A stretch of 59,792 bases of DNA, the filler included, from Jimgerdemannia flammicorona (taxonomy: Eukaryota): assembly GCA_003990765.1 (NCBI GenBank). It is 3 parts of 3 records of this genome, joined end to end, with 100 filler letters (N's around TTAATTAATTAA, not from the genome) between each part and the next. Parts side by side here need not be neighbours in the genome. Positions count along the whole stretch, not along the records: positions 1 to 19,865 come from RBNJ01001825.1; 2 more parts are not named here. One strand, 5' to 3'. The position numbers were made by a program, and so were the translations under genes. Shown here piece after piece: positions 2,190-35,904 of this stretch (positions are counted from its first letter, which is position 1; the number at the start of each line of letters is the position of its first letter). The notes below the pieces were generated by a model that saw only the letters and a list, made by a program, of their open reading frames with translations, made no database searches and was not told the DNA's origin.

Positions 2190-4786
2190 ATATGGTCATC
2201 TTATCAGTGACTATCTGTGAGTTATGGAATAATCATAAATGGTATAGTCTATTGTATTTTAGATCTATGATATGTGACTGGACAATATTACCTAAAATAT
2301 ATATATAATATTATTTTAATAAATTTATATAACCTTAAGATAACAATAGTCTCTAGCAACCCAACTTATATACATCATATCAGTAGAATCCTGGTCACTA
2401 CTATTCAAAATTAGAAGTTTCATTAAAAGCATACATACTAGTATTAGTAAAAAGAACTGATTCATATGGACTGCCCTTTGTCTTCAAGAGCTGATTGATG
2501 GTTTTTTATATACATAACTGTACCTTCAGCCTGTCTTTGTTTTGTTGGAGAATTGTAAAGCCTGGTAGCTTTGTTTCAGAATTCAAGAGAGATATAGTGT
2601 TACTTACTATATATGTGAAGATGGGTCTTTCTGCCTTGTCCTTTGTTGCATGATTCAAATATAATGCATATTTTCTATTTACATCAATGAATATTAGATG
2701 GAGAACAGAGTAGAGGATCTGATAGCAATATTCTTCTTCCAACATTCTGTTGGGTATAATGGCTGGAAGAGTTTGAGACCTATTATATAAAAGAACCAAT
2801 ATATGATTAGAACCTCTATACAATTTCCAAAAGAACTAAAGATTAGAAAAGAAGCGAGCTTGATACTTGCATGGCATTAAAGATTTGTATAGCTAAATGA
2901 CTAATATCTGAATTTGTTGGATTCAAATACACATCCTTATCCTGTAAGAAGTCTGTAGATGCAGAGTGTAAAGAGGTAGAAACCTCCATTGGTAATAGAG
3001 GATCTGTGCTAGCATATGGATTTTGAGAGATGATTCTTTGCCACTCTATATTGGTAAATACTGAATAGAGACATAGAGACTGAAGCACAATGATTGAAAC
3101 CAGGGCCCTATTATCAAGTATAGAATAATGAGTATAATATATTATAAAGTTAAGAACTACTTGAAGAATAAAAGAAATCTAAAATACTTATAAGACCTCA
3201 AAAATGTCATTCCAAAATTAGCCCTTTGTGGTCGCTCCAGTAAGAACAGCCATCTGGTATACTCGAAATCTCTCAGTAACATTGATGTCATTGACTATCC
3301 ACTAAATAACAGAAATATATTGTGAGATATAAAAATTAGAATAAAAAGAGAGAGCATTATATACATACTTCTGTTATTCACTCCTGCTGTATCTGTTCTG
3401 CTACTTCTGTTAGATTAACTAGTATGACTTCTACATCCTCGATCATCTCAGACTGGTCATCAATGTGAATACTAGAATTGTCGTCGGTCTGCGGTGCATC
3501 TACATTAATAGTGACACACAGGAAGTTAAGGTCTATAATCTTTTAACGCAGTCTGAAAAATGTATCTTATTGCCAGAAAAAAAAAAAAAAAAAAAAAAAG
3601 CTCACTATAATATACGATTTGGGTTTTACGCTTCATTCGTTTTTCTTTAATTTTAGTGCCATCGCCGTCCCTCCCAGCAACCTGCTTTGAAAAGATATGG
3701 TCACAACTATAAATATCTCTGATAATTATGTATATATGAAAAAAAAAAAAAAATTATCTAGATCAACTTACACCCTCACGCGAGTCGATAACTTCAGGTA
3801 GCTTTCGTTTCAACTTCTGCCCTTGCTTGTTATACCCGATCTTGAAAAATGGAAAATTGTATTAGCATATATGCTGAGCCAGCAATCGCCAGTGCATGAC
3901 TATTGATCACCTCTCATCCTCAACTCGATGACATCGTAGGGTGTGTGTTTCTCTCAATTGGAAAAAAACCCCGCGCGAACCTCCAGCGTCGCAGGCTGGT
4001 GGACGCTTCCCACTTCAGCCACTAGGGCTTCTGTGACAGAGTCACTCAAAGACATCGTGTAGAAGGGAGAGGTGCTCCCTCAACTTGATGACATCGTAGG
4101 GTGTGGGCTTCTCCCAATTGAAAAAACACGCGCGAACCTCCAGCGTCGCAGGCTGGACGCTTCCCACTTCAGCCACGAGGGCTTCCGTGACAGAGTCACT
4201 CGAAGACATCGTAGAGAAGAGGGAGGTGCTCTCAAATGGTAGACAAGAACCGTGCACTTGATAACATCGTAGGGTGTGTGTTTCTCCCAATTGGAAAAAC
4301 CCGCGCGAACCTCCAACGTCGCAGGCCGGTGGACGCTTCCCACTTCAGCCCTAGGGCTTCTGTGACAAAGTCACTCAAAGATATCATTCTGTGTGGTTCG
4401 AATTGTCAGCATTTTGTCAGAATACCAGAATACTGACCTTTAATATGTTTCGTAAGCCAGCAATCCTTTTGTCAACATTCGTCCCACTTGCAACATTCTC
4501 CTGGATGACACAGAGTTCCTTTAGCAGGACGTTATGAGAAGTGACCAATGTCGTCTTCTTGACTTGTGTTCTATAATATGCATCCCAGCTAGACACACAC
4601 CAGAGGAGGTACGAGCGCTTCCAAAAACCTAGTAGAAGAGAAAACAAGATCAAACTTTTGGTCTGAGGAATGCTTAACCAGCAACCTATACTATCCGAAG
4701 CTAGCATTGTACTTACTTGGATAATCAAGTTTCTGAAACACCTCCTCTGGGATGTCACTTGTTGGATTTTGTATATCCGTATCCAT
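2190..4786 (-). pseudogene. Multi-exon hypothetical gene with degraded C-terminal PD-(D/E)XK-like (REase-type) domain; LTR B inserted in its last exon
   Basis: ATG at 4786 (MDTDIQNP), GT-AG introns, exon SFWKRSYLLWCVSSWDAYY. C-terminal EEEYCYQILY...ERPIF...LLNSETKLPG...KDRLKVQL...DLKYNRLY resembles an expanded Mucoromycota family (RPDF...ExK; recalled, not searched). Stops and frameshifts present. Confidence 0.55.
3919..4387. repeat. Three tandem ~160-173 bp units
   Basis: ACT(C/T)GAT(G/A)ACATCGTAGGGTGTG...CGCGCGAACCTCCA...GGACGCTTCCCACTTCAGCC...GTCACTC recurs at about 3923, 4083 and 4256. Confidence 0.95.
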
Positions 4787-5662: not shown

Positions 5663-6208
5663 CTATCGGCGCGCAATCTTGGCGCGCGGTGCCTGCCCCG
5701 ATTCCTGTCTCTTTTGCAACTTCTGCTGCCTCTTTGACCCGCCCGCGGAGGTGTCGTCGGCATTGCCCTCCGACGCGCTGCTACCGCTGAACAAGTAGGG
5801 CGCAATGAACCCCCATCCCTTGTACACGGCGTATGCCGGGATCGAGAGCATGAGCCACCAGAGCTTGTCCGAGATGAGGGCGGTGGTGACGTGGACAAAC
5901 CAGGTGACGTAGATAATGTCGAAGAAGTAGGCGACCAGACCCTCACCGTTGATGTCGTCACCGCTCTTGGCGAGCGAGCCGTCGGAGAGATAGACAGGGT
6001 TGCCCATGCCATAGAGCAAGTTGTAGAGATACAAGGTCACGGCGACGGTGGAGCCGTACAGCAGGAAGTGGGAAAAGGAGAAGGTAGACCAGTAGAAGAT
6101 GACGCGCCAGAGGATGTAGAAGATGTTGACGGCGATGAAGCCCCTCTGCAGGTTTGCAAGGGTCTTTTTGTTGTCAGCGGCAATGCGTTTTGCAGAAGTG
6201 TTTGCCAT
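5663..6208 (-). CDS. SND2: SRP-independent targeting protein 2 / TMEM208 (DUF788) family, 181 aa, intronless
   Basis: MANTSAKRIAADNKKTL start, TM segments, GSLAKSGDDINGEGLVAYFFDIIYVTW, LSIPAYAVYK and basic tail SKRQQKLQKR are typical of the family. Confidence 0.92.
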   Translation of the reverse strand: MANTSAKRIAADNKKTLANLQRGFIAVNIFYILWRVIFYWSTFSFSHFLLYGSTVAVTLYLYNLLYGMGNPVYLSDGSLAKSGDDINGEGLVAYFFDIIYVTWFVHVTTALISDKLWWLMLSIPAYAVYKGWGFIAPYLFSGSSASEGNADDTSAGGSKRQQKLQKRQESGQAPRAKIARR

Positions 6209-6380: not shown

Positions 6381-8638
6381 ATGCTCAGGCGCATCTCGAA
6401 AAACGTCGCCGTCCTCGACGCATTCCCAAAGGTTGAGGTCGAGAACCAGCAGAGGAGCGATAAGGGTGGCATGCTCACCATCTTGCTCACTCTCATTCTC
6501 TTGCTGCTGACCCTGGCCGAGTTGAGGGAGTACGTAAAGATATCAAGCGACGAAGAGGTTCACCCTGGATATCGTTCTAATTTGTTATCACACACCCTGC
6601 ACGTGCATAGCTACCGCAAGCTGAATCACACGTATGAGTTCCTCGTCGACCAGCATATCGATTCCAAAATTCAGATAAATGTCGACTTGACGATCGCGAT
6701 GCAGTGCAACGGTATGAGCTAATGGACTTTCTTTCCTCTAATGCGTTGGCTCCTTCGCCAAATTTACGTAGTGATACTAACTCCGGTCCTAAACGTATCC
6801 AGCCCTGTCCGTCAACGTTCTGGATGTCGCCGGTGAGCGATTGTATCTGACCCAAAACCTTCACATCGTCCCGGTATTAATCCTCACACTCTTCTCTTGC
6901 TTCGCATATCAAAATCTCCTTTTTGAAATTATGCACACGATTGGGTTACATCTGACTTCTTCCATGTTCCTGTCGCTCCCTTCCTAGACAAGCTTCGAAA
7001 TCGGCAGGGCGCGTCCCTTAGGGTAAGGACTGTTTTGTAGATTGTTCTTCCAACTTCGTCCACCTTGCTCATTAATTCATAGTTAATTTTACGACTCACG
7101 CATCCGGTCCCTTTAGCGCGGGCAGACAGCGTGAGCTCAACATCCGCCGTATCTTGAAGGCCGCGAGAATGAACAAGGCGCCGGATTCGACGACCATTGG
7201 ATGTATGTTGTACTCCCAATATTTTTATTTTATTTTATTTTATTTTTTTTTGAGGAGGAAGGGTGTCTGGTGTGGATTGTGAATGAAACTCAACCCTTTT
7301 GATGTCAATTCGAAATTGTTTGGGTCTCTTTCTCGTCAGACCTGGAAATTGATGCGGCCTGGTGAAAGCCCGCTCGATGTCGCTCACCATTTTTATGAAC
7401 AATCTCTCCCACTTCCTTCACACATCAGCCGGGGACGATGGCGCGTGCCGCATCCTTGGTTCGTTCGAGGTTAACAAAGTGAACGGCAACCTGCACATAA
7501 CATCGCTGGGCCATGGTTACAGTGCGTATCGGTTTGACGTGACTAGTTTTGATCTCATCTCGTTTCCTATCATATCCCCTCGAGATGTCTCACCCAATTA
7601 ACGTAATAACCTCATCACTCTACATGTCGTAGGTGGCGCCCATACTGAACACGATGGTAGGTCCCCATTTCGATTTCCGGGCGCTTACATAAGTGGTCCT
7701 TTCGATCATGAAATCCCCTCATCGATTCCTTTGTGGCGAGGATAATACCAGTACGGCTGGCCATAGCTCTGACGTTCCTTATTTACTATCATGGTGTAGC
7801 GATCAACTTTACCCATCGCATCGACGAGTTCTCGTTCGGTCCGCTGTACCCGAGCATCAATAACCCGTTGGACGACAGCGTGGAAATCTCTAATACCCGT
7901 GAGTTAGATGGTGTTTCATCAGGGGCGATTTTGGTTTTGGTGATTTGGATGGATCTCGGTGGTGATGTATCGTTATTATGAGGTTCACGTGATTTCGAGA
8001 CTGATGCTGATATTTTGCCTTGACACACAGATTTTGAGGCATTCCAATATTTCATCTCGGTGGTAAGCTTCCCCATTCATGAGCACCACTGGCTTTCATC
8101 GGTCGCACCGATCTCGTGTTTTTTCCAACTTCCTCTTTTGACCTCCATCTCCGCCATTCTCACACCTCGTTGTACGCAGGTTCCGACTATCTACATCGAC
8201 AACGCTGACAATACCCTGATGACGAATCAGTACTCGGTTACCGATTACCGCAAGACCTTCGACCACGAGAACAGTCGTGGAATGATTCCAGGTACGTTTT
8301 GCCCAAACATGACATAACCCTCAGGCAGACCTAAATCAGGCCCGAACGCACACCCGAATACCACTATTGATCACACACACCCCTGCTTTCCATCTCACGA
8401 AGGCCTCTTCTTCAAGTACGAGATCGAAGCTATCTCTGTCCGCATCACCGAGCATCGCCAGACCTTCCGGTATTTCATCGTCCGCCTCTGTGGCATCCTT
8501 GGCGGCGCTTTCGTTACCGTCGGCTTCGCGTACCGCGCCCTGCGGTTCATCATCGACTTACCGAAGGGAAGGCCGGCGCCGACAGGGGCCGGCGCCGCGT
8601 ACATCCCGACCTCGAACTCTGAGAAGCGGCGGCTGTGA
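6381..8638 (+). CDS. ERV41: ER-Golgi vesicle protein Erv41/ERGIC2 family, 11 exons
   Basis: LDAFPKV...KGG-TM, INVDLTIAMQC, ACRILGSFEVNKVNGNLHIT, INFTHRIDEFSFG, NPLD, FQYFISVVPT, TNQYSVT, PGLFFKYE, RLCGILGG. Ten GT-AG introns (first 6530-6610, second 6712-6802); stop TGA 8636-8638. Lacks the Cys-rich insert of Erv46. Confidence 0.9.
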
Positions 8639-9230
8639 GCCGGGTTGATGTGGCAAACGTGTGTTAGGAAATGCGAGGCGGTGGTAGACCTACATGTTTT
8701 CAAGACGTCGGCGTTCTAGGAGACCTATTTTTGATGGTCTGAATTTGTTCTCATGCTTATGGGATGTGATTGTGCGAACCTTGGTTTGCTGCGTCTGCCC
8801 GTCATACGTGTAATATATAGAACGTAATGTGCGTAAGGCATATTGCGCGAATATTCCAAGGAAGTGTACTGTTAGAATTATAAGGCAACCGATATGATAA
8901 TACCCGAGCAATGACTGTCGTGAAAATTTGCAAGGGTTGAGGAGCTATAATGCGATAAAGAAGATATATAGGCAGACTTACTGAGCTCCTGCGGTTGATC
9001 TGGCTCGCGATCTAGGTCAATATCAAGATCAGAGTTCGTTCCCACCCGATGCGAATTGTATGTGCAAGTCTTCATTTACATGAATGCTAGTACATCAACA
9101 ATGGGCATTACTAGGCATTGCTATGTAAAGTCTACTATCTCCGTGATGAGCTATGCAACACTGCGTTGTCCATTTTTCGGATGCAAGAAGAGAGTCATAG
9201 AAGCTCATTTCACACATTTTATTCTGGCAG

Positions 9231-9720: not shown

Positions 9721-10276
9721 AGTGGCATGCTATGTTTTGGGAAAGGGAGTGGATTAGTGACTGTCAGATAGAATGTTAGGTGGACTATGTTGAGTTTCCG
9801 TTTTGCTTTTTGTTTTTTAATAATAAAAAAAATAAAAAAAAATAAAAAAAAAATGTGTAGAAATGTTGTCAGCTGAAATCTTAAGGCTTTTCCGAGAACG
9901 TTTTGTAAGTTTTATTTTATTTTATTTTATTTTTGATCTTTTTTGCTATTTGTGAATGTTGTGGGGTATGAACTTGTCGGGAAGAAGATTGGAAAATGGG
10001 TGGGGCAATGTGCAAAAGGCAGCTATGAATATAGTGTAATGGTGACCCCAGAATGATGACATCAGCACAGGAGACAGCCTTTCCTTGCAAGCCACCAGAT
10101 CGGAACACAAGAAGATCATATAGTATATGAGATGAGCAATGATGACCAACTGTGAGTTATTGTAACCACAGTACAAGTATCCTGAAGAATATAAAAGAAG
10201 GATCAAGGAACCACAGTAGCAGCAACCAATAAGAACTACCAATCTCAAATTAGCTCAAAGACTTACCATAAATGAA

Positions 10277-11086
10277 ATGTCTACTGCCCACCAAACCTCA
10301 AGGTCAAAGAATCACCAAGGTATCTCAGTTGAAGAAAGGATGTTCCAAGATATCAGAAGAGCCATGAGAACCTGCTCAAGAAGGACTCCTAGTGTCAACC
10401 TGAGTACTGCAGACCCCTATCACTTTATTCTCTACCACCATAAAATGGAAATAAGGATCACTATTGCTACTGAATATCTTCAAATGTGGCAGGAGTATGA
10501 AATAGGAAACCTTCTCTGCCAGGAGTTCCCACAGGCCAGCCCTTAAGAGCTATAAGATGGCACTCCCATAGATATATGAGATAAGAATGGCTAAGAAGAT
10601 TCATCAGATCTTCAGGCATACACTATAGTTGATCCCCAACTTGGAGTATGTTAGAGTCTCAGACTTCAGAGATCTGTCATCCCACTATATCAATATACTA
10701 GAAGCCAGGGTGGCCACAGAAGCTCAGTCCACTATCACCCTCAATAGTGATAAAGTAGAAGACTTCTGGCATCCTATCCTTCAGGACAACCCGACCAATT
10801 CCTACAAGGATTGATCTCAGTATTCCAAGGCCCAAGCATCTAGGTTAGACCTTCCCAAGACCTCACATTTGTCCCTTATTTTGTAGAAGAGAACCTCATA
10901 GACTGGAGAGCCCCAGACCTCCTCCTCACTACCAAATGTGATGATATCATCAGTGATGACGTCATCCCACATGACATCAAAGTATGTAAAACATATAACC
11001 TATATGATGAATTCATGAATCTCATCTCCTTCAGTGATGATAATGATGATGATGAAGCCCCCATGGTCCTGAACTTTCTACTCTAA
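10277..11086 (+). pseudogene. LTR-encoded accessory ORF (~270 codons), 5' LTR copy
   Basis: MSTAHQ...LQMWQEYEIGNLL...AKKIHQIF...VRVSDFRDLS...acidic tail...VLNFLL*. Nonsense transitions plus two compensating indels. Present in all five lineage-A LTRs in the window. Confidence 0.75.
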
Positions 11087-11098
11087 GTTCTTTATTAT

Positions 11099-11220
11099 AC
11101 TGAATAATACCAGCACTGGTATTTTGATGTAACACTGGATAATTCCAGCACTAGCATTCTGAGGTAATGCGAAATTATTCCAGCACTGGTATTCTGATGT
11201 GACACTGAATTATACCAGTA
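11099..11220. repeat. U3 array of ~3.5 x 35-bp units each centred on palindrome AATACCAG-CA-CTGGTATT
   Basis: Units start at 11099, 11134, 11169 and 11204 (partial). The same array is at ~18330, ~28363, ~42085-42208 and ~44830-44968. TATAAATA follows at 11326-33. Confidence 0.9.
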
Positions 11221-13771
11221 TCCTTAACCTGTACAACCATTAGTGCTGACCCTGGAACTTAGTAGTTTTAGTTATTGGAATTTATATTTAGCTTTATATC
11301 TTAGCAACTATTGAATTATATTTTGTATAAATACTCCTCTTATTTCCTCTGAAATAAAGTCAGTCTTCTCAGTACAATACATACAATCTCTTGCAAGCAA
11401 TCTAAGAGATAATAAGATAGTTAAAGATAAGAAGTTTGAGGACTATAAGATCTTAGGAAGGCACTCCAATAAGAACTTGCTTATAACAAAACTTGAGTTA
11501 GTCTAAGAGATATATCTTGAAGAGAATCTGGCATATTTGAAGAACTTAGCAACCACTATATAATAACTTAGTGCCCATTGGCTGGTGATTCAAGATGAAT
11601 TCCTCACTTTCAAGCTGAAAAATGAACAACCCCTACAATAACTACTCTGACTACAAGAGTCACCTCTGCAAGAATTCAAGATAAGATGGAAATGCATCCC
11701 CCCACATTCTATAGATATACTACTGAAGAGTCAATCCTGATCTTCATTAAAGACTTTGAACAATTTGCCGCTGTATGAGTCCTTAGTGTGGATGCTCAAT
11801 TGGCCCTTCTACAAGTCAGTCTCAGAGGACCTGTCAGAGATAAGTTCAATGCAGCCACCATTGCTGATGCTAATGCAGCCAAACTTGCCAACATGAAGGC
11901 CTTTCTCAGAACAACATATTATATCAAAGAGATCAAGCAAGCTCTCAAGGATCAACTCAATACTATCTGCCAGGGACTTAGTGAAGATCCCAACTCATTC
12001 TATATCTGAATCTACCACCAGATTGTCTTGGCTGACTATAATGACTGCCTCAAGGAACAAATAGCAGATTCAACTTTCCTCAAAGGAGTTCACCCTGAAA
12101 TTTCCCTAGCAATCTGGTCTACTCTAGCTACACTGACCCTTGATCAGAAAGTGGTCTTTGCACAGAGATATTGAACTGCCAGATACCCTGCCGAACACTC
12201 AATGGAGAAAATAACTGGCATCAAGATGGAGCCATCAAAGCCAACTAGTATCTTATCTGCCCCAGTTGTAAATAGACAACCAACCCCACCTACCCCCAAG
12301 ATAGCCAAAACTGACCCAGTGGAAGAACTTACCAAGCAGTTTGCTGAGATGACTGCACACCTTAGTGATGTTGTTAGAGAAGTCTGAAGTACCAACAGGA
12401 GACCAGTGCAGAGATTTGCAGCTGCTATAGAAGAATACAATATCACATACTTTAGATGTAGAGAAGAAGGCCACTATGCAAAGAATTGCATGACTGAAAC
12501 AAGACACAAAGCCCAACTAAGCAATGCTAGCAGAACTAGAGAACAAACCAATGCAGTAGTCATCGAGGAGATTAGTGACACTGATGATGAAGAATACTAT
12601 GAGGAGCTTGAATTCTTTCCTGCTACTGAAGATACCAGAACCCAGTCCAAGCCCTATGATAAGAAGAGCAACAGTAAGCTAGTTGGAAGACCAAAGAAGA
12701 CCCCAGCTGTCACTATTTAAAGCAAGACCCAACCTAAGGAGATTGATCAAGACATAGAGTTAGATGAAGCTGCCTACCAAATTATTGAAGGCACTACTCC
12801 AGTCTCAGGAGAAAGTGAAAGCAAGAAGGAACAGAAGCTATATAAGACCAAGATCCATCAGTATGATATCTACAAGGACCTCAAGGAACAGAAGGTCAAT
12901 GCTACTTTTGGACAACTAGCTGAAGTCCCTGCCTTCAGACAGCAGTTGAGAGTAGGACTTGCAACTACTGCCAATAATTAAGAGTACAAGATTGTAGAAG
13001 CTCACAATGCACAGGAAGAATCTGAGAACTCAGGTGAAGAATCCGAAGACCAGTGCAAGACATCAGCCTATATCCTATATCAGATTGAAGACTGTATCTT
13101 TGATACCATCATTGATACCAGTGCTGGAGGATATCTCATAAGCAAGAAGGCAATTGACCACCTAGGCTGAGATATTGAAGAGTCCACCAAGATGGTCTAT
13201 GTTACAGTAGATGGTATATGAGCTACCCCCCTTGGAAAAATCCAAGAAGTCCCCATCAAGATAGGAGGAGCTACTATCCCAGTAGATATGATTGTTACAA
13301 GTGCCACCAACTATGATATCCTCATTGGCAACCAATGGCTTCACAAGGCCAAGGCCATCATTGATCTCAATGCTCAGAAGATGCAGATCAACTATAGAGG
13401 AAGAAAGGTATGAGTCTCTATCAATGTCCACAAAGGAGTTCTACCAGACATGAAGGAAGGAGATGAAGAAGACACAGAGGTCTTCATGCACTCAGTGAAC
13501 AAGAACAAGAACAAGACACCCAAGCTCACAGATGAGCAGTGGTACAACAAGATCATCGATGGCTATGTCTCTTAAGGAAGATGCCCCCATAGTACTAGGA
13601 TATACTGCTCTGAACACCTGAATGACTACTGGTCCTGTATCAGTAAAGTCAGGAAAATCTGTCAATAGAAACATAAGCAAAAAGCTACCAAAACAAAAAG
13701 GAAAGCCAAAGAAGATGACCAGCCCCCAGAGCTCCAAGCTGACAGCAATGATGAGGAGAAACAAGAATCAG

Positions 13772-14193
13772 ACATCACCCTCAAGGTCAAGAAGTTTCAC
13801 CCCAAAGCTAAGATTCCAGAATATAAGACTGAAGGAGCTATAGAAATGGACCTTGCCAGCATTCAAGATGCTACCCTCAAACCACAGACCACCACCCTAC
13901 TTGGTACTGGAATTGGAGTCAAGCTACCAGAGAACCATGCCAGAATTATTAAGACTAGGAGCAGTCTGGCCAAAAGTAAAATCTCAGTTAAAGGAGGAGT
14001 AATTGACCCCAATTACACTGGTGAGATCTTCTTTATAGTCAGAAATCACAACCACACCACCCCCTTTGAAGTCAAGAAGCATGACAGGATTGACCAGATG
14101 CTGATCCACGAAATCAAGAAGCCCAAAATCATTGAAGCCATCAAACTCATCAAGACCAAGAGAGGAGAACAAGGCTTTGGATCTACTGGAAGA
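13772..14193 (+). CDS. dut: Trimeric dUTPase domain in pol, between PR and RT (lineage A)
   Basis: All five motifs: GAI(E/G)MDL, RSSL, GVIDP(N/D)YTGEI, DRI(D/G)QM, RGEQGFGSTG. Confidence 0.97.
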
Positions 14194-14449
14194 GGAGCCT
14201 ATGCCACTATTAAGATTACTGAATTCAAGCACAAGAAAGACAAGGACCAGAACAAGCACACATATACCATTGGAGAAAACTTTCCCCTGGAGGAACAACT
14301 TCTCAAAATCCTGCATCAGAATAAAGGAGTACTTGCTACAGACTTCAGGGATATCTATAATCAAGAACCCAAGTACTACCATGAAGTTGACACTGGTGAT
14401 ACTAAGCCTATCTACCAGAAAGTCAGACCCATACTGCCTGTCTACAGAG

Positions 14450-16946
14450 AGTGGCTATGAGCAGAGCTCAAGGAAATAGAAGAAGCCAGGATCATCAAGT
14501 AAGCTATCAGCCCCTGGGCCTCACCCATTATTCTTACTCTGAAGAAAGGAAGCAAGCCAGGAGAGTTTGTGCCAAGACTCTGCATCAACTACAGGAAGCT
14601 CAATGCTATTACTAAGAAGGATAGACAGCTCTTGCCAAATATTCAAGAAATCCTTACCACTCTTAGAAGTGAAGCCAAATACTACACCACCTTGGATCTG
14701 TTCTCAGGCTTCTATCAGATTGGCCTCACTCAAGATGCCAGTGAGAAATCAGCCTTCATCACACCTGACACCACCTATATCTACCTACAAATACCATTTA
14801 GAATATGCAATGTCCCAGTAAGTTTTCAGCAAATGATGAATAGAGTTTTCAGCAATGAGATTGGAAAGTGGCTCTTTGTCTATGTTGATGATGTGATCAT
14901 CTTCAGCAATACTGTACAGGAACATATCAATCACATACAGCTAGCCCTCAAGAAGCTCAAGGAGTATGGCCTCTACATTAAGCTCAAAAAATGCAAGTTT
15001 GCAGCTCAAGAAATCACCTACCTAGGACACCTCATCAACCAGACTGGAATCCACACAGATCCCATAAAGATCAAGGCTGTTGCAGCCTACCCAAGATCCA
15101 AAACAACTACAGAAGTCTATGCCTTCCTTGGACTGGCCAGCTACTATAGAAGATTCATCAAAGAATACTCCAACATTGCAGCACCTATCTACAAGCTACT
15201 GAAGAAGGAGACCAAATTTGAATGGACCAAAGAGTGCCAAGAAATCTTCAATGAACTCAAGACCAGGTTGACCCAAGCACCTATCCTCAGAAGACCAGAC
15301 TGGAACTTAGAATTCATCCTGCAGACAGACGTGAGTACTATAGGACTTGGAGCAGTCCTAGCTCAGAAGAAAGATAGATATGAATATGTCATCTTCTATA
15401 TAAGCCAAGGTACCTGCAGAGCAGAACAGAACTACAAGTCATACAAGCTCAAATACTTAGCAGTAGTTTGAGCAGTAGATAAGTTCCACTACTATCTAGC
15501 TGGGAAATACTTTACTATTCAAACAGACCACTCTGCTCTTACCTGACTATTCCACACTCTGAACCCCAAAGGAATATATGTCAGATGGATCTACAGGCTA
15601 CAAGAGTATGACTGTACTATCAAGCACCACTCAGGAAAGACCAATACCAATGCCAATATACTCTCAAGGATACCCCAAAACACCCCATCAAGACTATTCA
15701 ACATAAATAAGGAGCTATATAATAGATTAATCAGCTACCTTGGGCAGCGGAAGATGCTCAACCACCTTGAACCTTGGACAATCAACATCATTAACTGGAC
15801 TTGGAAACAGTTTGAACTAGACAACACTATACTCAGAAAAGGAGGAAAGCTAGTAATATCCGAACACAAGAAGTATCAAGTAATGAAGAAAGTATATGAG
15901 CAAGGATACTTAGGAGGAACCAATACATATGATAAGGTAAGAAGAATCATATGGTGGCTCAAGATGGAAGAAGACCTGCACAAATTTGTCAAAGGGTGTG
16001 ACAAGTACCAAAAACAGAAACAAGATCAGTAAGACCAGACACCTGGTTTATCAAGAATTAAGCCTATCCCCTTCCACCACATCACAATGGATATCATTGG
16101 ACCATTACCAGTAACACTATCAGGAAACCACTATATTATAGTTATTGTAGACCTCTTTACTAAATAGATAGAGGCAGGAGCATTATAAGAAGCCAATGCC
16201 CTCTCTATAGTCGACTTCCTGTACTGAGAAATCATCTGCCGCTACAAGACATCAAAGTAAATCACAACAGACCATGGAACAGAATTTATCAATGGATTCT
16301 ATGAGATAATATATCAGAAATACAAGATCTAGCACATCAAGACCCCACATACTATCCTCAAGGAAATGGACAGACAGAGAGAACCAATAAGACCCTTAAG
16401 AACATCCTAGCGAAGATCTCAGAGATATATGAGAATTGGGATAACTATCTCCCAACTGCCCTCTCTGTCCTATGAGATATATAGTCACAGAGCACACACT
16501 TTACTCCAAGAGAGCTGCTCTTCGGAGAAGAATCTGATGGAACCTCAGCCATGAATCTAGACCTAACTTAGAGATGGGTTGATGCAGAAATCCAGCAACT
16601 ATACCAAATCAGGAAGAAGGCTGAAGATTACATCACCAAGTCACAAGCACTGATAAGAAAGAATGCGGAAAAGAATCACAAGGCCCTAGAACCCATCCAA
16701 ATCAGAGAAAAAGTTCTACTGTATTGAAATATGGTAGAAGTCTCATGATTGCGAAAACTAGAGCTCAAATGGAAAGGACCCTTCTATATGCAAGATATCA
16801 AGAGAACCACCTTTTGGCTTAGAAAAATCTCAGGGACCATACTGCCTACTATAGTACATAGGAACAGACTCAAGAAGTACCACAAACCTATACAAGAGAA
16901 GTAAAATATGATGACCACCTATGAGGTTCTAGTCTGCGAATCATAA
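14450..16946 (+). pseudogene. RT-RNase H-integrase of lineage A
   Basis: SPWASP, RLCINYRKLN, LDLFSGFYQI, YVDD, FLGLASYYRRFI, TDHSAL, MDIIGPLP, TDHGTEF, KWKGPF; multiple nonsense transitions. Confidence 0.95.
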
Positions 16947-17501
16947 TAGTATATCCTGTGACCAGCAGGCTATCTGTCTGGACCATTCTCTAAGGGATAT
17001 GATACTGGCAACTACTCATCTATAAGACTTTCAAAGTCAGAGAAGTTCAAACCATCAACTAATTGGTCAAGATCAGAATCAGGCCCTTGCTCTATATAAA
17101 GAGAGTGATCCTTCACCATCATGCCAAAATACAAAGAGAAGATGCCAGTCCATAAATACTACTTTTCGACCCCTTGCCAGAGGTTATGGGATTAGCAAAT
17201 TTTTTAGGACTGGACCAATGAATAAGGATGCTCAGGAAGATCCTTATTCAGGAGGAAGATGTAATGGTGACTCCAGAATGATGATATCAGCACAGAAGAC
17301 AGCCTTTCCTTACAAGCCACTAGATCAGAACACAAGAAGATCATACAGCATATGAGATGAGTAATGATGACCAACTGTGAGTCATTGTAACCACAGTATA
17401 AGCATTCTGAAGAATATAAAAGAAGGATCAAGGAACCACAGTAGCAGTAACCAACAAGAACCACCAATCCCAAATTAGCTCAAAGACTTACCATAAATGA
17501 A

Positions 17502-18317
17502 ATGCCTGCTGCCTACTAAACCTCAAGATCAAGAAACCACCAAGATATCTCAGTTGAAGAAAGGATGTTCCAAGACATCAGAAGAGCCATGAGAACCTGC
17601 TCAAGAAGGACTCCTAGTGTCAACCTGAGTACTGCAGACCTCTATCACTTTATTCTCTACCACCATGAAATGGAAACAAGGATCACCATTGCTACTGAAT
17701 GCCTCCAAATGTAGTAGGAGTACGAAATAGGAAATCTCCTCTGCTGGGAGTTCCCACAGACCAGCCCTCAAGAGCTACAAGATGCCACTCCCATAGATAT
17801 ATGCGAGACAAGAATGGCCAAGAAGATCCATCAGATCTTTAGACATGCACCATGGTCAATCCCCAACTTAGAGTATGTTAGAGTCTCAGACTTCAGAGAT
17901 CTGTCATCCTGCCATATCAATGCACTAGAAGCCAGGGTGACCACAGAAGCTCAGTTCACTATCACCCTCAACAGTGATGAAGTAGAAGACTTCTGGCATC
18001 CTATCCTTCAGGACAACCCAGACCAATTCCTACAAAGATTGATCTCAGTATTCCAAGGCCCAAGCATCTAGGTTAGACCTCCCCAAGACCCCACATTTGT
18101 CCCTTATTTTGTAGAAGAGAACCTCATAGACTGGAGAGCCTCAGACCTCCTCCTTACCACCGAATGTAATGACATCATCGGCAATGATGTCATCCCACAT
18201 AATATCAAAGTATGCAAAATGTGCGACCTATATGATGAATTCGCAGATCTCATCTCCTTCAGTAATGATAATGATGATGATGATGAAGCCCCCATGGTCC
18301 TGAACTTTCTACTCTAA
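17502..18317 (+). pseudogene. LTR-encoded accessory ORF, 3' LTR copy (272 codons, no frameshift)
   Basis: Single frame from ATG 17502 to TAA 18315-17. Internal stops are TAA/TAG where other copies have CAA/CAG/TGG. Confidence 0.8.
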
Positions 18318-19125
18318 GTTCTTTATTATACTGAATAATGCCAGCACTGGTATTTTGATATAACACTGGATAATTTCAGCACTGGTATTCTGAGGTGACA
18401 TGAAATTGTTCTAGCACCGGTATTCTGATATGATACTAAATTATACCAGTATCCTTAACCTATACAACCATCAGTACCGACCTTAGAACTTAGTAGTTTT
18501 AGTTATTGGAATTTATATTTAGCTTTATATCTTAGCAATCATTGAATTATATTTTGTATAAATACTCCTCTTATTTCCTCTGAAATAAAGTCAGTCTTCT
18601 CAGTGTAATATACACAATCTCTTGCAAGTAATCTAAGAGATAACAAGACAGTTAAAGATAAGAAGTTTGAGGACTATAAGACCTTGGAAAGGTACTCCAA
18701 TAAGAACTTACTTATAATAAAACTTGAGTTAGTCTAAGAGATATACCTTGAAGAGAATCTGGCATATTTGAAGGACTCAGTGACTACTACATAACAATAG
18801 GAATGTTCAATATCTGAAGTGTGTGAATAGCCACTAACATTATTATCTCTGTTCTTTTATTCTTTTGTCATCATCTCCAACATCTCCTTTCTCACAGTAT
18901 TTGTCTTACTGCTATGATCTGTTATCTGATGGACTTTGGGCTTGAGCATGTGATGCAACTGACTATGCTTCTCTCAAGATTTACTGCATCAGACCAACTA
19001 TGCTAAGCATGGTAGCCTCTTCTAGACAAGATAGATATGAGACCACTAGTATTCTATAAATATATCTCTGATGAGTCAATTATTATCTTTCTTGATAATT
19101 TTGAGCAATATATTATAGTAAGGAC

Positions 19126-19384
19126 TAGTACTCTTAATGAATCAAATCAAAGGTCCAATTTGATTTAATTTAAATTGAATCAAAGATTAATTCAATTCAA
19201 TTTTAATTCAAACTCTATTTTTCAAAATGTAATAATTTGATGAAAATATGTCTAAATTTAACAATCTTTAGCTTATTAAATTTAAATATATTTTCATTGA
19301 GTTATTATATTTCAAAAAATAGGATTCAAATTGGACCCTCAATTTGATTTAATTCAAATTGATTTAATTTATTTAAGAGTACTA
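19126..19384. mobile_element. hAT-type MITE
   Basis: Termini TAGTACTCTTAA...TTAAGAGTACTA; 8-bp TSD GTAAGGAC/GTAAGAAC; internal inverted symmetry. Confidence 0.85.
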
Positions 19385-19865
19385 GTAAGAACTCTATTAT
19401 CTATATAGTAAGTAGCTCTTATATCATTCAGTCTCTAAGGACCTATCTCTTAGATAGTATATAGGAATATCTTTTTAGTAGTGATTTTTTCAAGTTTATA
19501 TTTTCTGTTTTTTTTTTTGATAAAATTTTACCCAAAGATAAAAAAAAATATAAAAAATCAATAGTTAAAATATTTTTATAATTTTCAGACTTATGAATTT
19601 TTAAAAATTTATAGCCAAATTTGGCTGCATTATTATCTAAGAGATAAAAGCTATATTCACAGTTATGAATTATATTAGAAATGATGATACTGCAATACAG
19701 TATGTTCCAAAACTGAACCAATGTTTTATTAAATTTTATATTTTAATTATTTAAATAAAAATACTCTAAATAAATATATTTTATATTATAATATATTATA
19801 GTTTTATATTAGAGATATTTAAAAATATTAAATTTATTATTTTAAAATTTTTATTTTATCTTTAA

Positions 19866-19965
19866 NNNNNNNNNNNNNNNNNNNNNNNNNNNNNNNNNNN
19901 NNNNNNNNNTTAATTAATTAANNNNNNNNNNNNNNNNNNNNNNNNNNNNNNNNNNNNNNNNNNNN
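19866..19965. other. Artificial contig linker N44-TTAATTAATTAA-N44
   Basis: Six-frame stop linker, identical to the one at 39830-39929. Confidence 0.98.
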
Positions 19966-19983
19966 AAAAAAAAAAAAAAAAAA

Positions 19984-22900
19984 GCATTGGTAGTGGTTGG
20001 TTCAGCAACCATAGTCTTGGTCAGGCAGTTAATGAATATGATAATAGTATTAGTACCAGATTGAGTTCATGGTAGTTGAGTTATAAAGTCTATGGTAATT
20101 TTCTTGAACTTCTTAGTAGGAATTGACAGTGGTTATAGCAAACCAGTAGGTACTTAGTTGGTAGACTTGTTGTACTAATATAGATTACAGCTAGCAATAT
20201 AGTTCTTGATTTCCTTGACTATGTTTGGTCAATGGTAGTAGTGTTGGATGTTCTTGACAGTCTTCTCAATTCTCAGATGATTAGCAAAAGGGGAGTTATA
20301 GTGTTCTTATAAACCCCTATAGTATAAGTTCATGTTTTCAGATAGATAGACTTAATCTTAATAATAGATTAAATTATTCTCAACAGTATATATCCTTAAG
20401 CTTATTTGAGAAAACTCTAGTAGCAACTGTATCTTCTTTATAAGCTTGCCTGATTTGGTTTAGGAATTCTGATGCCAAGGTGACCTATATAATTGTGATA
20501 AGATCTGGGCATCTTAATATGATATCTGGTACTATAAGTATCTTGCCAGGCTTATAGATGATCATTGAATTGAAGGTTTGAAGCTTGAGGTTCTACTTAG
20601 CTTATAGACATGACAGAGTAGGTTGGATATTGATATACTTGAGGAATTGATAATCAGTGATAATATCAAACTCAATATCTTTTAGATAGTATCACTAGTA
20701 GTCTAATATATATATTATTGCCAGTAGTTCCTTCTTGTAAGTGGCTAGCTTTTGTTTAGCTGGGGCCAACTTGTGAGATTCAAAAGCAATAGGACAATGT
20801 CCTTTATTATCATCTTGTGACAGAACTGCTCCAATGGCAAAATTCAATACATTAGTAGTAACTGTGAATTTTAGGCCTTGATCTGCATTATGTAGAACTA
20901 GAGTATGGATCAGACAGTTCTTGAGTTCTTGAAAGACTTGTTAATAGAAGAGGTCCCAGGTATAGAGTATATAGTGGTCTGAGTACAGGGCCTTCCTCAT
21001 GAGGTTAGTCAGTGGCTTGGTAATACCAGAGAAGTTTCTGACAAAGTAGTAGTAGTAGCCAGCTAGACTAAGAAAGAATCAGAGTTCTGTGAGGTTTGAT
21101 GGAATGAGACATTCTTCAATTACTTCTATCTTATATAGGTCTACTTGAATTTCTTATGTAGAGACAATGTGACCAAGGTATTCAACTTATTCTTTGAAGA
21201 ATTCACACTTCTTGAGCTTAGCATAAAGCTTGTATTTTTGCAGGATCTCCAGGACTATTTAAATATATTTAAGGTGTTCTTCTTTAGTTGTACTAAAGAT
21301 CAGGATGTTATCAAGATATATCAATAGGAAAATAAATAGTTGGTTCTTAAATATCTTGTTCATCAGAGTCTGGAATGTGGTGGGTGCATTGGTGAGACCA
21401 AATGCTAAGATCAGGAATTCATAGAGTCTAAAGGGAGTTATGAATGCAGTCTTGGAAATGTCTTCTGGCTTGATTCAGATCTGGTGGTATCCTGACATAA
21501 GGTCTAACTTGATAAAGTACTTGGCATTCTTAAGAGTATCAAAGATTTTGATCAATCAAGGATAGTGAATAGTAGTTCTTAACAGTGAATTTGTTGAGTG
21601 TATGGTAGTCTATATATATTCACAGAGTACTATCCTTCTTCTTGATGAATAAGACTAGTGAGCCATAAGGAGATTTGCTTGGCTAGATAGCTTCTCATAC
21701 AAGTAGTTCTTCTAGTTCCTTCTTGACTGCTTCAATTTTGAGTGGTGATATGCAGTATATATATTTCTTAGATAGTATAGCTCCTAGGGTCAGTTCGATT
21801 TCATGATCAACTTCTCATGTAGGCAGTAGATTAGGTAGCTTGTCTAGAAAGACATCCTTGAATTATTCTAGCAGTAACTTGATGCTTTCATTGACTAATA
21901 GTCTCTTGTCTTATTTCTTAGAGCAGATCATTATAATAAAGGTATGTATTGCCTTCTTAAGTACTTTCTTATACTATATAGCTGACAGTATTGCAATCTG
22001 GGTCTTGCTCATAGTCTTGTCTGTCTTGATCATAATATTGGCTCCAACTTGAAGTAAAGTGACTTCATTCTTACACCAATCAATATCTGGATTGTGTTTT
22101 ATAAGCCAGAGTTTTCCTAAGATTAGGTCATGATCTCCTAGTAGTGCAATCTCAAAGTCTACTTATTCCCAATATTTCTGGATCTTGATGGGTAGTTTGG
22201 TGGCAATTGATTCAATGGGGTGCAGAGTACTGTCTGCAGTAACTATATTATTGTTCTTGAGTGCAGGCTTGGTGAGAATCTTGAGGCTTTTGATAATATT
22301 TTGATTGATGAAGTTCTCTGTAGCTCTGCTGTCTATAAGTACTTAAACTTCTTTCCCTTTGACTAAGTCTTTGAAAATGAGCATAGCTTGAGCTCAATTT
22401 TCACTAAGGCTTGCTGCTTGATCAGTGCTACCAAAACCCTTTTGATCTTATTTGGTTTCAGGGAGTTCTTGGACTTCTGTAATCTTGAGTTGACTGGCTT
22501 TTTCTAGGATCATTTGTATGACTTGGTATTCTTCTTTAACTATATAGTCTTAATTCTTCTGGTTGACAAGCAAGACTTGAACTTGTCCTTGAAAGTCTGA
22601 GTTAATGATACTAGTATCTACATCTAAATGATGTTTGATACTGAGTCCTAATCATGGTACAATTCTAGTATAATGTCCTTCAGAGCATTGAACTACAATT
22701 CCAGTAGGTACTAGAGTACAGCCCTTGACTGGAATAGTGACTTGTTTGACTGAGTGTAGGTCAAGACCAATGGCTCTTTCTATTTGATATTGAGGGATTT
22801 GGGTCTTCAGATGAAGCTTCTTGACCTTGAGCTCAAGTTGACTGGTGATAGGATTGATAGATATATCCTTGAACAACATGGTGACTGGTCTTGAGAGTTT

Positions 22901-24362
22901 ACTAGTTTTCCTAGGACATTTGGTTGCAATGTGTCCTGTTTGGTGACAGAAGAAACAGGCTCCAGATTTCTTCAGGCAGTTCTTTTCTTCAGAGGTGAGC
23001 TTGGTGTTCTTTTTGTTCATGGTATCTAAGTCCATTGGTACTGGGCCAACTGTTTTTGGTTGGTTTCTGTAGTGGTTCTCAAAGTGGTTCTTCTTGTGGT
23101 ATTCTGATTCAAAGCAGTTGTCAAAGGTGATAATATCAAATCTATTGACAATTCTCATGGCTTCATCCAGAGTTTTGAGCTCTTCTAGCTCGACCTTGAC
23201 TTATGTATTTCCCTTCAGACCTCAGACATAGCAGTCTATCTTTTCATCCTCAGATACTGCTAGTAGCTCAAGTAGGATTGACAAGAATTGTATATTGTAG
23301 CTTTGCACAGACTTGAGTTGCTTAATGTTTGCTAGCTTGTCCCTGACTAGCTTGGTGGTATTAGCAGACTTGAACTGCTTGTAAAGGGCTCTCTTGAAAG
23401 CTTCTCAATCTCTGATTTATATATATAAGTGTACAGATGTAACCATTATATAATTGTACTACCAGATGGCTGTATTTTCTTAAAGGAGTGTAGTGGTAAA
23501 TTGGACTTACATATCATCTTCCATTCTTGTGAGTTTGAAGTATTAGTCTAATTGGAAGGTCTATATATCTGTAGATAGTCCCCCTCAATGGCTGTCAAAG
23601 GTATCTGGCTTAAGTGGCTTGAAACTGACTAGTGCTATAGCAGAATGTGATATACTTGTATTTTGTATTTTCTGCTATTCTAGTTGTATTTAAAGCTCTT
23701 AGATTTGGTGGGCCATAGTATTGATTATATCCTCTATTCTGAGTTGCTGTCTTTTTACTTCTTCTATAGCAGAGGGGTCTGGCTAATAGACTGACTCTTT
23801 GCAGCTCATTTCAGGTTTGTATGACTATTTGTAACTAGTTTCTGAATTTGTATGAGGTTTCTTAATAAGGTAAGGTATAATGATACTGCTGCTACCAAGT
23901 GTAACAGTTCTAGTTTTTTTAAGAGGAAGTAGCTAAATCTGGAAGTTCTAGTTGGCCTAAAGTAGCTTGAAGAGATACTTAAAGGTTCAAGTGTTCTTAA
24001 AGGATTTCTGGGAGAAAATATTCTGAGCTTTATTCAGATAGAGAATAAGGATATTTATATATAATCTGAAAAAAAGATCTAGAAGGATCTTAGAAAGAAA
24101 GAGAAATGCTAAGAAATAGGTTCTCAGCAAAGCTGACTAATACTATTCTACAATGTTCTGAAAGATTCCATAACTAGCTAAGATAAGATACTTGATACCA
24201 AGAAAAGATAAGAATATTCTAGTAGTGTCTAGGTGCTGAGAGAAGGTTCTAAGCAAGTAGAAGGTGGTAGAAAATAGTAGAATATTCAAGAAATGACAAG
24301 AAAAGACTAACTAAAAGATGTGAAAATATACTAAGACTAAATATAACTGTGAAATTGTTACA
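19984..24362 (-). mobile_element. Gypsy lineage D (5' LTR-gag-dUTPase-PR-RT-RH-IN, 3' end lost at contig edge)
   Basis: LTR 23900-24362 (TGTAAC...GTTACA); PBS TGGTAGCAGCAG (initiator-Met-like); PVPMDLD, CFFCHQTGHIATKC, dUTPase, LIDS(R/G)AT, YLD(N/D), IN IDFITQLP. Confidence 0.92.
22420..22835 (-). pseudogene. dut: dUTPase domain between NC zinc knuckle and protease (lineage D)
   Basis: LKVKKLH...AIGLDL...LVPTGI...IINSDFQGQV...QKGFGSTD, immediately followed by the PR motif LIDS. Confidence 0.9.
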
Positions 24363-25965: not shown

Positions 25966-26560
25966 ATATCATATTGAACTTTTAGTCAGAATACTTGATA
26001 GAAGGTGAGAGTTTTGAGTACAAGAATTGTTATAATATAAAATAGGAGAGAGAGATTGTACAGATATCTAAATATTGACTGAATGAGTGTGAGATACTTG
26101 GAGATTATCTAGAGACAGTGTAGTAAGATAATAGAGAGAGAGAAAGATGAGATAACTTGAAAGAACAGTTGATAGAGTATATTAGTAATGAGTAGCTCAC
26201 TGTTAGATAGACACTAGTAGTATAGATAGAGTTAGCTAGATACTGGCTATATATATTCAAGAATGAGAGACAGATGGTCTTGGAAAAAAAAATAGTAAGG
26301 TAAAAAAGATTGATAGTAGATATTCTATCAGGCTGGTGAAAAGGGTGGGGCCCTCAGAGAGATCACTATTACTGCCTGGTAAAAGAGATATATGAGAGGA
26401 GTAGTAGATAGATTGAAATAGTTAATAATATAGTTATTTTTAAAATAGTGAGAATAAGAGAGAGAGAATAAAGTAGGATAGAGTAGATTGGGTTAGAGCT
26501 ATCAGTATGGTATGAGAACTATGTATTTGTTATAAATTAGTTAATAAAGGGATCTAGTGC

Positions 26561-26591
<31 letters not shown>
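25966..26591 (+). mobile_element. 5'-truncated LINE 3' end with poly(A)
   Basis: Purine-rich degraded ORF2-like sequence, AATAAA near 26543, A-tail 26565-26591. Confidence 0.5.

Positions 26592-35818: not shown

Positions 35819-35875
<57 letters not shown>
34655..35875 (+). mobile_element. ~1.2-kb retroposon, copy 2 (no TSD)
   Basis: Colinear with copy 1; ~53-nt A-tail; left flank is lineage A pol, right flank is the lineage B PPT. Confidence 0.92.
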
Positions 35876-35878
<3 letters not shown>

Positions 35879-35904
35879 ACAGACTACTCTTCAGTGGGGG
35901 CTGA

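Follow-up and report, generated by a model that had tools for sequence, protein, structure and literature searches.

In Neurospora and other Pezizomycotina, repeat-induced point mutation (RIP) leaves near-pure C:G to T:A changes in integrated repeats, and the order of preferred contexts in Neurospora is CpA >> CpT > CpG > CpC. The present analysis concerns a stretch of 59,792 nucleotides of Jimgerdemannia flammicorona DNA (GenBank assembly GCA_003990765.1), hereafter the window, and the transposons it carries: a Ty3/Gypsy family of long terminal repeat (LTR) retrotransposons, with elements 1, 2 and 3, and an unrelated family called family B. For this DNA, a sequence-only reading had proposed RIP-like, CpA-biased hypermutation in an apparently non-Dikarya host. 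Jimgerdemannia (Endogonales) is a zygomycete-type, root-associated fungus.

The current literature describes RIP and RIP-like defences as limited to Ascomycota, apart from CpG-type variants known from some Basidiomycota. RID-1 is reported solely from Pezizomycotina, and Endogonales and Glomeromycota are reported to possess DIM-2-like homologues (PMC9963178); according to a 2026 review, RIP of heterochromatic repeats in Neurospora depends on DIM-2. A 2025 kingdom-wide k-mer screen, which included J. flammicorona and gives its genome as ~73% repeats, describes ascomycetes as unique in RIP-type defence (PMC12543289). The authors of the study of CpG (TpCpG) hypermutation in basidiomycetes report that they could not separate it from deamination of 5-methylcytosine (5mC) (PMC4014442). 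In Zoophthora radicans (Entomophthorales, Zoopagomycota), RIP has been suggested solely from composite dinucleotide indices, with candidate proteins carrying DNA methyltransferase (DNMT) domains, and RIP is there described as previously observed only in Dikarya (eLife 2024, PMC11105155). For Endogonales and Mucoromycotina, a full-text literature search, with subscription papers outside its scope, turned up no description of RIP-like mutation.

The window provides alignment-level evidence for a nearly pure, transposon-confined C-to-T process in an Endogonales genome, in a phylum without accepted RIP. The process acts after integration, is confined to the elements and is symmetric between strands; ageing copies fill with stops and finally turn into AT-rich relics. 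The favoured reading, about as probable as not, is an active C-to-T hypermutation that is linked to methyltransferases and is RIP-like in effect. The window resembles Pezizomycotina RIP in the near-pure C:G to T:A change of integrated repeats on both strands and in both linked copies, in CpA as the top non-CpG context, in nonsense codons derived from CAA, CAG and TGG, in the sparing of single-copy neighbours, in AT-rich relics and in a DIM-2-type enzyme reported in the host. It differs from it in the Mucoromycota host, the reported absence of RID, the negative RIP indices of young copies and the lack of strand tracts, and from Neurospora in that CpG has the highest mutability, CpC ranks second of the non-CpG contexts and CpT is nearly spared. 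Like the Zoophthora case, it is a claim of RIP-type signatures beyond Dikarya, made for a genome of zygomycete grade that is inflated by transposons, with DNMT-type proteins as candidates. However, that case comes from another phylum and was built from indices, whereas the indices of the window are mostly negative and its evidence consists of LTR pairs with target site duplications (TSDs), polarisation and per-site rates.

A nearly pure C-to-T process in integrated elements

The 156 bp at 10035-10190, on which the sequence-only reading was centred, open the 5' LTR of element 1. This element lies on the plus strand, with its 5' LTR at 10035..11565 (delimited by self-BLAST), its internal region at 11566..17259 and its 3' LTR at 17260..18796, preceded by a polypurine tract. 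Pfam searches of the stop-ridden internal region detected gag, protease, dUTPase (13669-14460), reverse transcriptase (RT)/RNase H (14503-15471) and integrase (15547-16032 onward). The self-comparison of the window showed the LTRs as a direct repeat of ~1.53 kb with TG..CA ends, and the TSD ATAG at 10031..10034 is identical to the four bases at 18797..18800. Thus, all hallmarks of Ty3/Gypsy were found, namely TG..CA LTRs, a TSD and the order gag, protease, RT, RNase H and integrase, with an extra dUTPase between protease and RT. Because of the TG..CA ends, the polypurine tract and the matching TSD, the two LTRs derive from one insertion and were identical when it occurred.

The comparison of 10035-10190 with 17260-17415 gave exactly 13 differences, all of them transitions, of which nine were at YpA, three at YpC and one at YpG (context scored by the base that follows the variable C/T position on its 3' side); the earlier hand count, in both number and context (CpA/TpG, CpC/GpG and CpG), was exact. 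When the element 1 LTRs were aligned in full (1531 columns), they showed 134 transitions, one transversion and six gap columns, and the LTR pair of element 3 (41690-43326 versus 44871-46076; 1206 columns) showed 138 transitions and five transversions, which makes 272 to 6 for both pairs together. The internal region of element 1 differs from that of element 2 by 371 transitions and 23 transversions and from that of element 3 by 177 and 10, while pairwise comparisons of the four family-B copies, unrelated to the Gypsy family, gave 105-154 transitions and 6-14 transversions. The control available within the window, a tandem duplication outside the transposons (3918-4385), showed 18 transitions and nine transversions (Fisher p = 2.5e-7 against the LTR pair of element 1), and in an older Gypsy copy at 49833..55700 the counts relative to element 1 were 521 and 353. 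As neither the control nor the old comparisons carry such an excess, it reflects an effect on repeats after their insertion and not the general spectrum of the genome or the pipeline.

Ordinary neutral divergence, misassembly or sequencing error has a negligible probability as the source of these counts and is refuted by the transition counts, the control and independent contigs. The proportion of 134 in 135 departs from a two-thirds expectation at p = 1e-22, the control duplication stands at an ordinary 2:1, and 666 contigs of one independent public run are at least 99% like the stretch. The same excess appears in three further data sets, and the same pipeline applied to other organisms yields other context orders and ratios of ~1-3 for old comparisons.

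The independent data were contigs from four coded public runs, aligned to 4400-17200 at a likeness of at least 85%. In run X5, a soil metagenome with 5745 contigs on the stretch, 471 places carried transitions and 29 transversions; the corresponding numbers were 352 and 28 in run X2, 178 and 18 in run X1, and 5 and 2 in run X3 (nine contigs). At the transition places of the soil run, the window copy had T/A where the others had C/G 296 times, and the opposite was seen 175 times. The contigs thus show family-wide variation of the same kind. In two runs guessed to be RNA, contigs covered the LTR at 10035-11658 to depths reaching 3466 and differed from it at 20-51 positions per 280-400 bases; transcription of diverged Gypsy copies is therefore possible, the RNA status of the runs being a guess. 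Root metagenome is the label of two public runs that had small word shares, and no conclusion on habitat was drawn from them.

A scan of metagenomes with the RT/RNase H open reading frame (ORF) returned 80 loci with at most 41% identity, none of them in this Gypsy family or, apparently, in this organism; tblastn with eight named proteins gave at most 49% identity. These loci served only as unlabelled comparators, passed through the same LTR-pair pipeline. In 13 LTR pairs from Ga0307507 contigs (L018, L019, L021, L027, L030, L034, L037, L042, L048, L049, L058, L062 and L064), 194 transitions and 13 transversions were found, with values of 0.26 for CpA, 0.20 for CpG, 0.02 for CpC and 0.02 for CpT. 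Eight pairs from contigs with the prefix JAABU (L033, L055, L056, L057, L069, L070, L073 and L079) gave 265 and 17, with CpG 0.37, CpT 0.20, CpA 0.11 and 31 of 33 CpC sites. Neither set matches the order CpG > CpA > CpC >> CpT of the window, and since the sets differ in their context orders, the pipeline does not force one pattern. Old comparisons between elements in these other organisms' loci had transition to transversion ratios of ~1-3.

The Ga0307507 LTRs are 213-288 bp long, lie ~5.7 kb apart, belong to a distant Gypsy family and are mostly undepleted in CpG, with an observed/expected ratio (o/e) of 0.64-1.38. A Pfam search of 12 long ORFs (14 of the 80 loci) revealed one host gene, ATG10-like, flanking a Ga0307507 locus; the Atlas entry "commonest Ascomycota" for it is a weak lead only. 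The JAABU contigs are AT-rich (30-37% GC), and CpC is nearly gone from their LTRs, with 33 inferred sites in 3264 bp, of which 31 differ.

The changes run from C to T. When other LTR copies were used as outgroups, C>T/G>A changes outnumbered the reverse by 77 to 42 and by 97 to 29. In columns where a single copy deviates, 182 C>T/G>A changes, 60 reverse changes and 20 transversions were found in family A (five LTRs), and 132, 25 and 12, respectively, in family B, where copy B3 has the fewest singleton C>T changes of the four copies (17). The sites of apparent T>C change are located at YpA, YpG and YpC, and YpT accounts for only 0 of 42 and 1 of 29 of them, though TpT makes up about a quarter of T contexts; because they avoid YpT, they are parallel C>T changes in the outgroup copies. 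Between the family-B fragment at 40047-40300 and copy B1 (254 bp), there are 53 transitions and one transversion, and in 49 of the 53 the fragment has T/A and B1 has C/G. The old Gypsy copy at 49833..55700 has T/A against C/G in element 1 at 372 positions and the opposite at 149. The restriction to C:G to T:A transitions that characterises RIP was therefore found in the 272 to 6 ratio and, for the direction, in outgroups, singletons and context.

The reading frames of element 1 record the same change. They contain 38 in-frame stops, 36 of which have a homologous codon in another copy, and in 19 of the 36 that codon is sense. Among these pairs, TAA stands against CAA seven times, TAG against CAG twice, TGA against CAA five times (with an inferred ancestral CGA), and TGA against TGG, TAG against TGG and TAG against CAA (a double change) once each; two require a transversion, so that transitions alone account for 17 of 19. 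The proposal that the stops come mostly from CAA, CAG and TGG is thereby mostly confirmed.

Sequence context and the two strands

For the analysis of context, C was assumed to be ancestral wherever the members of either LTR pair differed or agreed as C or T, which gave 270 scored changes. CpG was changed at 55 of 66 sites (fraction 0.83, per-lineage rate 0.90), CpA at 144 of 446 (0.32, 0.20), CpC at 58 of 292 (0.20, 0.11) and CpT at 13 of 397 (0.03, 0.017), while transversions affected 6 of 2736 sites (per-lineage rate 0.0011); the contexts differ at chi-square p = 5e-54. C>T changes thus exceed transversions per site by a factor of ~15 to 800. CpG accounts for 55 of the 270 changes, and 215 (80%) lie outside it, so within the two LTR pairs CpG deamination alone, which the earlier reading had named as an outcome that would refute it, does not explain the spectrum. 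Its description of the process as CpA-biased stands numerically, CpA contributing 144 of the 270 changes and being the top non-CpG context, but not per site, where CpG (0.83) exceeds CpA (0.32); because of this highest per-site rate, the term is valid only among non-CpG sites. No symmetric preference of the CHG type was seen in the pairs (CAG 0.25, against CAT 0.36, CAC 0.38 and CAA 0.31), and a preference for a 5' T was not evident in raw, un-normalised counts.

RIP-like hypermutation in basidiomycetes (Microbotryum/Pucciniomycotina and Rhizoctonia solani AG8) is similar in its transitions in repeats and its top target, CpG. Unlike the basidiomycete type, in which CpG is essentially the sole context, the window has 215 of 270 changes at CpA, CpC and CpT, with no 5' T preference evident. 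Moreover, genes and repeats are reported to be hit alike in R. solani AG8, whereas the host genes beside the elements of the window are unaffected.

Both strands were changed. The CpA rate was 0.166 on the top and 0.139 on the bottom strand in one LTR pair and 0.144 and 0.203 in the other, and the loads of the two LTRs within a pair were 72 and 62, and 71 and 67. Equal rates and loads in TSD-matched LTR pairs point to integrated duplex DNA as the substrate, on both strands and in both copies, as in RIP, and because strands and LTRs were hit equally, editing of minus-strand cDNA and transcription-coupled deamination of single-stranded DNA (ssDNA) are not the main source. The very improbable alternative is that a cytidine deaminase (AID/APOBEC-like or other) edits cDNA during retrotransposition or ssDNA exposed by transcription. 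Deaminases do produce pure C>T change with a dinucleotide preference, and the deep coverage of the LTR by contigs of the presumed RNA runs leaves room for transcription of the family. However, the differences within an LTR pair arose after integration of one element, editing of minus-strand cDNA would place G>A on a single strand and chiefly in one of the LTRs, where here both strands and both LTRs were hit equally, and the symmetric preference for CpG suggests a target of the methyltransferase type. Editing of the cDNA/APOBEC type, A-to-I editing and reverse-transcription error were each rejected as the main cause, given the LTRs of one insertion, the involvement of both strands and the avoidance of TpT.

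The strand coordination that the sequence-only reading had thought worth looking for was not seen. In the four LTRs, the numbers of runs were 39, 35, 36 and 37, against 33.7, 31.5, 36.3 and 33.8 expected; the changes also gave no signal of clustering in the LTR pairs. Many superimposed rounds of mutation would also erase such tracts.

The main rival is passive methylation decay, in which transposons would carry methylation at CG and, to a lesser degree, at CA and CC, with spontaneous deamination of 5mC and poor T:G repair, and neither a dedicated mutator nor repeat sensing would act. This alternative, already named in the earlier reading, is less probable than an active process. In its favour are the top mutability of CpG, symmetric between the strands, the interspersed changes without strand runs and the equal loads of paired LTRs; the elements were also already CpG-poor at insertion. 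Transposons of the related Rhizophagus irregularis are reported to be highly CG-methylated. The window resembles CpG methylation decay, as in vertebrates, plants and Rhizophagus irregularis transposons, in its CpG o/e of 0.00-0.14 in the elements against 1.03 in the adjacent genes and in the symmetric loss, and it departs from it in the 272 to 6 excess, in the dominance of non-CpG changes and in relics down to 17-25% GC.

On the other side, 215 of the 270 changes are outside CpG, and the rates of CpA and CpG reach ~180 and ~800 times the per-site transversion rate. By comparison, CpG transitions in mammals are ~10-50 times as frequent as other changes, and in heavily methylated plant genomes the transitions within LTR pairs outnumber the transversions by only a few to one. 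The 49 one-sided transitions with one transversion in the 254 bp of the fragment at 40047-40300 also weigh against decay.

Several points weigh against an active, RIP-like hypermutation. Mutability peaks at CpG, with symmetric change of the two strands, as is typical of methylation decay, and the element had only 19 inferred CpG in 1.5 kb (38 C/G positions) when it inserted. The balanced loads of paired LTRs are also expected of a gradual process, strand-coordinated tracts are missing from the four LTRs, and the classical RIP indices are not reached in young copies. In addition, the sample is small, consisting of two LTR pairs in one 60-kb window; the public-run data are contigs whose RNA or DNA status is partly guessed, and a metagenome may include other organisms; and the link to DIM-2-like enzymes comes from a published reciprocal-BLAST inventory of a fragmented assembly. 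The earlier proposal of a RIP-like process is accordingly upheld in part: the unidirectional post-insertion C>T change, CpA as the most numerous context and the 215 of 270 changes outside CpG agree with it, and the negative indices, the missing strand runs and the top per-site rank of CpG do not.

Confinement, composition indices and candidate enzymes

The change in composition coincides with the edge of element 1, where CpG o/e drops from 0.88 at 9501-10000 to 0.05 at 10001-10500. The block at 4400-9400 with the host genes SND2 and ERV41 contains 298 CpG (o/e 1.03), as compared with 137 in the whole of 10035-59792. CpG o/e of the transposon parts is 0.00-0.14, and 0.08-0.41 in family B, which agrees with the earlier description of nearly CpG-free transposons beside a CpG-rich SND2/ERV41 block. 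Confinement to repeats, as in RIP, was thus found; all mutated sequences are transposons, so "repeat" and "transposon chromatin" coincide in the window.

In its strict, canonical form, RIP would recognise duplicates of a few hundred bp upwards by homology before karyogamy and mutate them in bursts, here with a DNMT-like enzyme in place of RID. We consider this stronger sub-case of the active reading unlikely. It would account for the similar extent of mutation in linked LTRs 5.7 kb apart, the almost pure C:G>T:A spectrum, the sparing of single-copy flanks and the end of copies as AT-rich relics. The short duplication with its 154-bp unit is spared, which is consistent with a length threshold, quoted for Neurospora as 400 bp and 80% identity; as the DNA around it is also unmethylated and CpG-rich, this duplication cannot tell the models apart. 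Strict RIP is opposed by the reported absence of RID outside Pezizomycotina, by a context order unlike that of Neurospora, by the strand-coordinated tracts not being found, and by the fact that repeat and transposon chromatin are inseparable in the window.

In young copies, TpA/ApT was 0.74-0.94, (CpA+TpG)/(ApC+GpT) 1.25-1.56 and the composite index -0.31 to -0.81. The composite index exceeded zero in 17 of 118 1-kb windows, two of them in host genes, and stringent thresholds were passed by two of the 118; these counts add to the points against a RIP-like process. Only the AT-rich relics of 17-31% GC begin to pass the indices. One of the few parts that reach the classical values is a relic of 23% GC at 39830..41686 (strand not assigned), with TpA/ApT 1.22, (CpA+TpG)/(ApC+GpT) 0.81 and a composite of +0.42; its repeats differ from those at 48117-48625 by 94 transitions and 27 transversions. 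The dinucleotide analysis suggested with the sequence-only reading therefore does not favour RIP in this one window, being negative in young copies and positive mainly in relics. In young copies, CpG decay replenishes CpA/TpG, and no more than roughly one base in ten is altered.

The k-mer screen shows a related pattern. In the table of PMC12543289, among the rows listed, AT-rich tetramers of J. flammicorona are enriched 1.5-4.0 fold in non-coding DNA and stand at 0.76-0.81 fold in annotated repeats, and the species falls outside that screen's definition, which is enrichment in both compartments. LTR-pair spectra reveal what index and k-mer screens overlook.

As to the enzymes, Dataset S1 of PMC9963178 lists for J. 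flammicorona AD002 three DIM2-class proteins (JGI 471264, 479070 and 483080) together with KMT1 and HP1, and the DIM2-class proteins are described as carrying BAH and C5-methyltransferase domains; among the rows listed between its DIM2 and KMT2 blocks, no RID row for J. flammicorona is present. In the mechanism proposed here, transposon chromatin of the H3K9me/HP1 type would recruit DIM-2-like enzymes of the DNMT1 superfamily, and cytosines in CG and CH contexts would become T by enzyme-promoted deamination or via 5mC. The process would in that case depend on cytosine methyltransferases, and its analogue would be the DIM-2-dependent heterochromatin branch of Neurospora RIP, for which RID would not be required. 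Membership in canonical RIP, with homology sensing, a sexual phase and RID, is unproven.

A further and more doubtful proposal is that Endogonales have a true RIP-type defence without RID, in which DIM-2-like enzymes mutate repeats under a rule of their own, CpG > CpA > CpC >> CpT. If this were true, repeat hypermutation would either predate Dikarya or have arisen independently in Mucoromycota, and it would have been missed because index and k-mer screens are blind to young copies. If the process is active and enzyme-driven, repeat-directed mutagenesis would reach the zygomycete grade, and DIM-2-like enzymes would be candidates for an ancestral role. The inflation of the genome (~73% repeats) despite hypermutation is a puzzle raised by this reading.

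Host identity and other features of the window

The host is J. flammicorona or a near-identical genome, as the 5' ORF of ERV41 (6381-6719, including the in-frame first intron) matches, at 100% identity across 97% of the ORF, a protein model held at NCBI for this species, which is placed in Mucoromycota, Mucoromycotina, Endogonales; this match makes the host non-Dikarya. In the SND2 tree, the window groups with Mucoromycota (support 92/89), away from Basidiomycota and outside Mucorales and Mortierellomycotina. The nearest named relatives of SND2 are Calcarisporiella (58%), Mucorales (50-55%), Mortierellomycotina (44-48%) and Basidiomycota (at most 40%), and no ascomycete relatives were found in the protein relative search. 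The ERV41 match and the SND2 tree thus bear out the non-Dikarya host of the earlier reading and exclude an ascomycete, which would have undone it.

The SND2/TMEM208 gene (5666..6208, minus strand) consists of a single exon (Pfam PF05620, E 1e-52) with CpG o/e 1.00. RNA contigs on it show 0 other letters, and the gene serves as an unmutated, CpG-rich reference compartment. ERV41 (6381..8640, plus strand, 3' end approximate; Pfam ERGIC_N and COPIIcoated_ERV) has many short exons, and ten GT..AG joints from 6529 to 8401 were seen in RNA contigs. The region of both genes is transcribed, lying under RNA contigs with 0-5 differences. The first intron of ERV41 (6529-6611, 81 bases, GT..AG) is in frame and open, and it is spliced out in RNA contigs. 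One J. flammicorona protein model at NCBI reads through it, which is why the ORF of the window is 100% identical to that model and 73% to two others. The tandem duplication used as control (3918..4385, plus strand) is CpG-rich and has a 154-bp unit (TRF 3918-4231, period 154).

Downstream of element 1, whose 5' LTR has a CpG o/e of 0.07, one or more degenerate Gypsy relics occupy 18801..27240 on the minus strand (31% GC, CpG o/e 0.01, TpA/ApT 1.06), with remnants of RNase H, dUTPase and zinc-knuckle domains. Element 2, of the same family as element 1 and on the plus strand, begins with a 5' LTR at 27242..28840, which is 85% identical to the LTRs of element 1 (~200 transitions to 31 transversions). 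Its internal region (28852..32730, then 33924-34371 and 34556-34654, by self-BLAST, with Pfam matches to protease and dUTPase) is split by two family-B insertions. Element 3 is an internally deleted copy on the minus strand, with a 3' LTR at 41690..43326, a remaining internal region at 43327..44819 that covers the integrase end (Pfam rve), and a truncated 5' LTR at 44871..46076 (CpG o/e 0.00); its TSD, GTAT, is present at 41686-41689 and 46077-46080. The older divergent Gypsy copy at 49833..55700 is on the minus strand (31% GC, CpG o/e 0.00) and retains Pfam-detected remnants of dUTPase and protease. The dUTPase (PF00692, E 3e-25 and 3e-29) is encoded in the Gypsy pol at 13669-14460 and 31253-31966, in the same frame as and upstream of the RT ORF, and remnants of it are kept in older diverged copies at 22652-23200 and 53115-53501, both on the minus strand. 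Every Gypsy LTR copy contains a 35-bp tandem repeat of 2.2-3.7 units (11099-11218, 18330-18449, 28409-28484, 42084-42209 and 44833-44966).

The four family-B copies lie on the plus strand: B1 at 32734..33926 (~1.2 kb, 50% GC), B2 at 34655..35875, whose 3' end is overlapped by A53 (TRF 35823-35875), B3 at 38788..39829, the least mutated (56% GC, CpG o/e 0.41), and B4 at 48638..49832, identified by self-BLAST and pairwise alignment. The fragment at 40047..40300, on the minus strand, has 32% GC against 50% in B1 and is heavily and one-sidedly mutated. The family is 1.2 kb long and GC-rich, with no Pfam match in its long ORFs, and looks like a non-LTR or SINE-like retroelement. Two of its copies stand 0.7 kb apart within element 2, and ~15 bases of element 2 are duplicated at the B1 junction.

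A 9-bp tandem array (TCTTGCCCA, ~106 copies, 73% matches) at 37733-38673 is open in three frames, with CpG o/e 0.13 and CpA/TpG o/e 2.15, and a run of 47 T lies upstream at 37413-37459. A further repeat occurs twice, at 879-2192 and 35876-37282. At 30 positions the latter copy, which lies within the transposon cluster, shows T/A against C/G in the former, with five cases of the reverse and nine transversions, and the bin 1501-2000 within the former retains a CpG o/e of 1.08.

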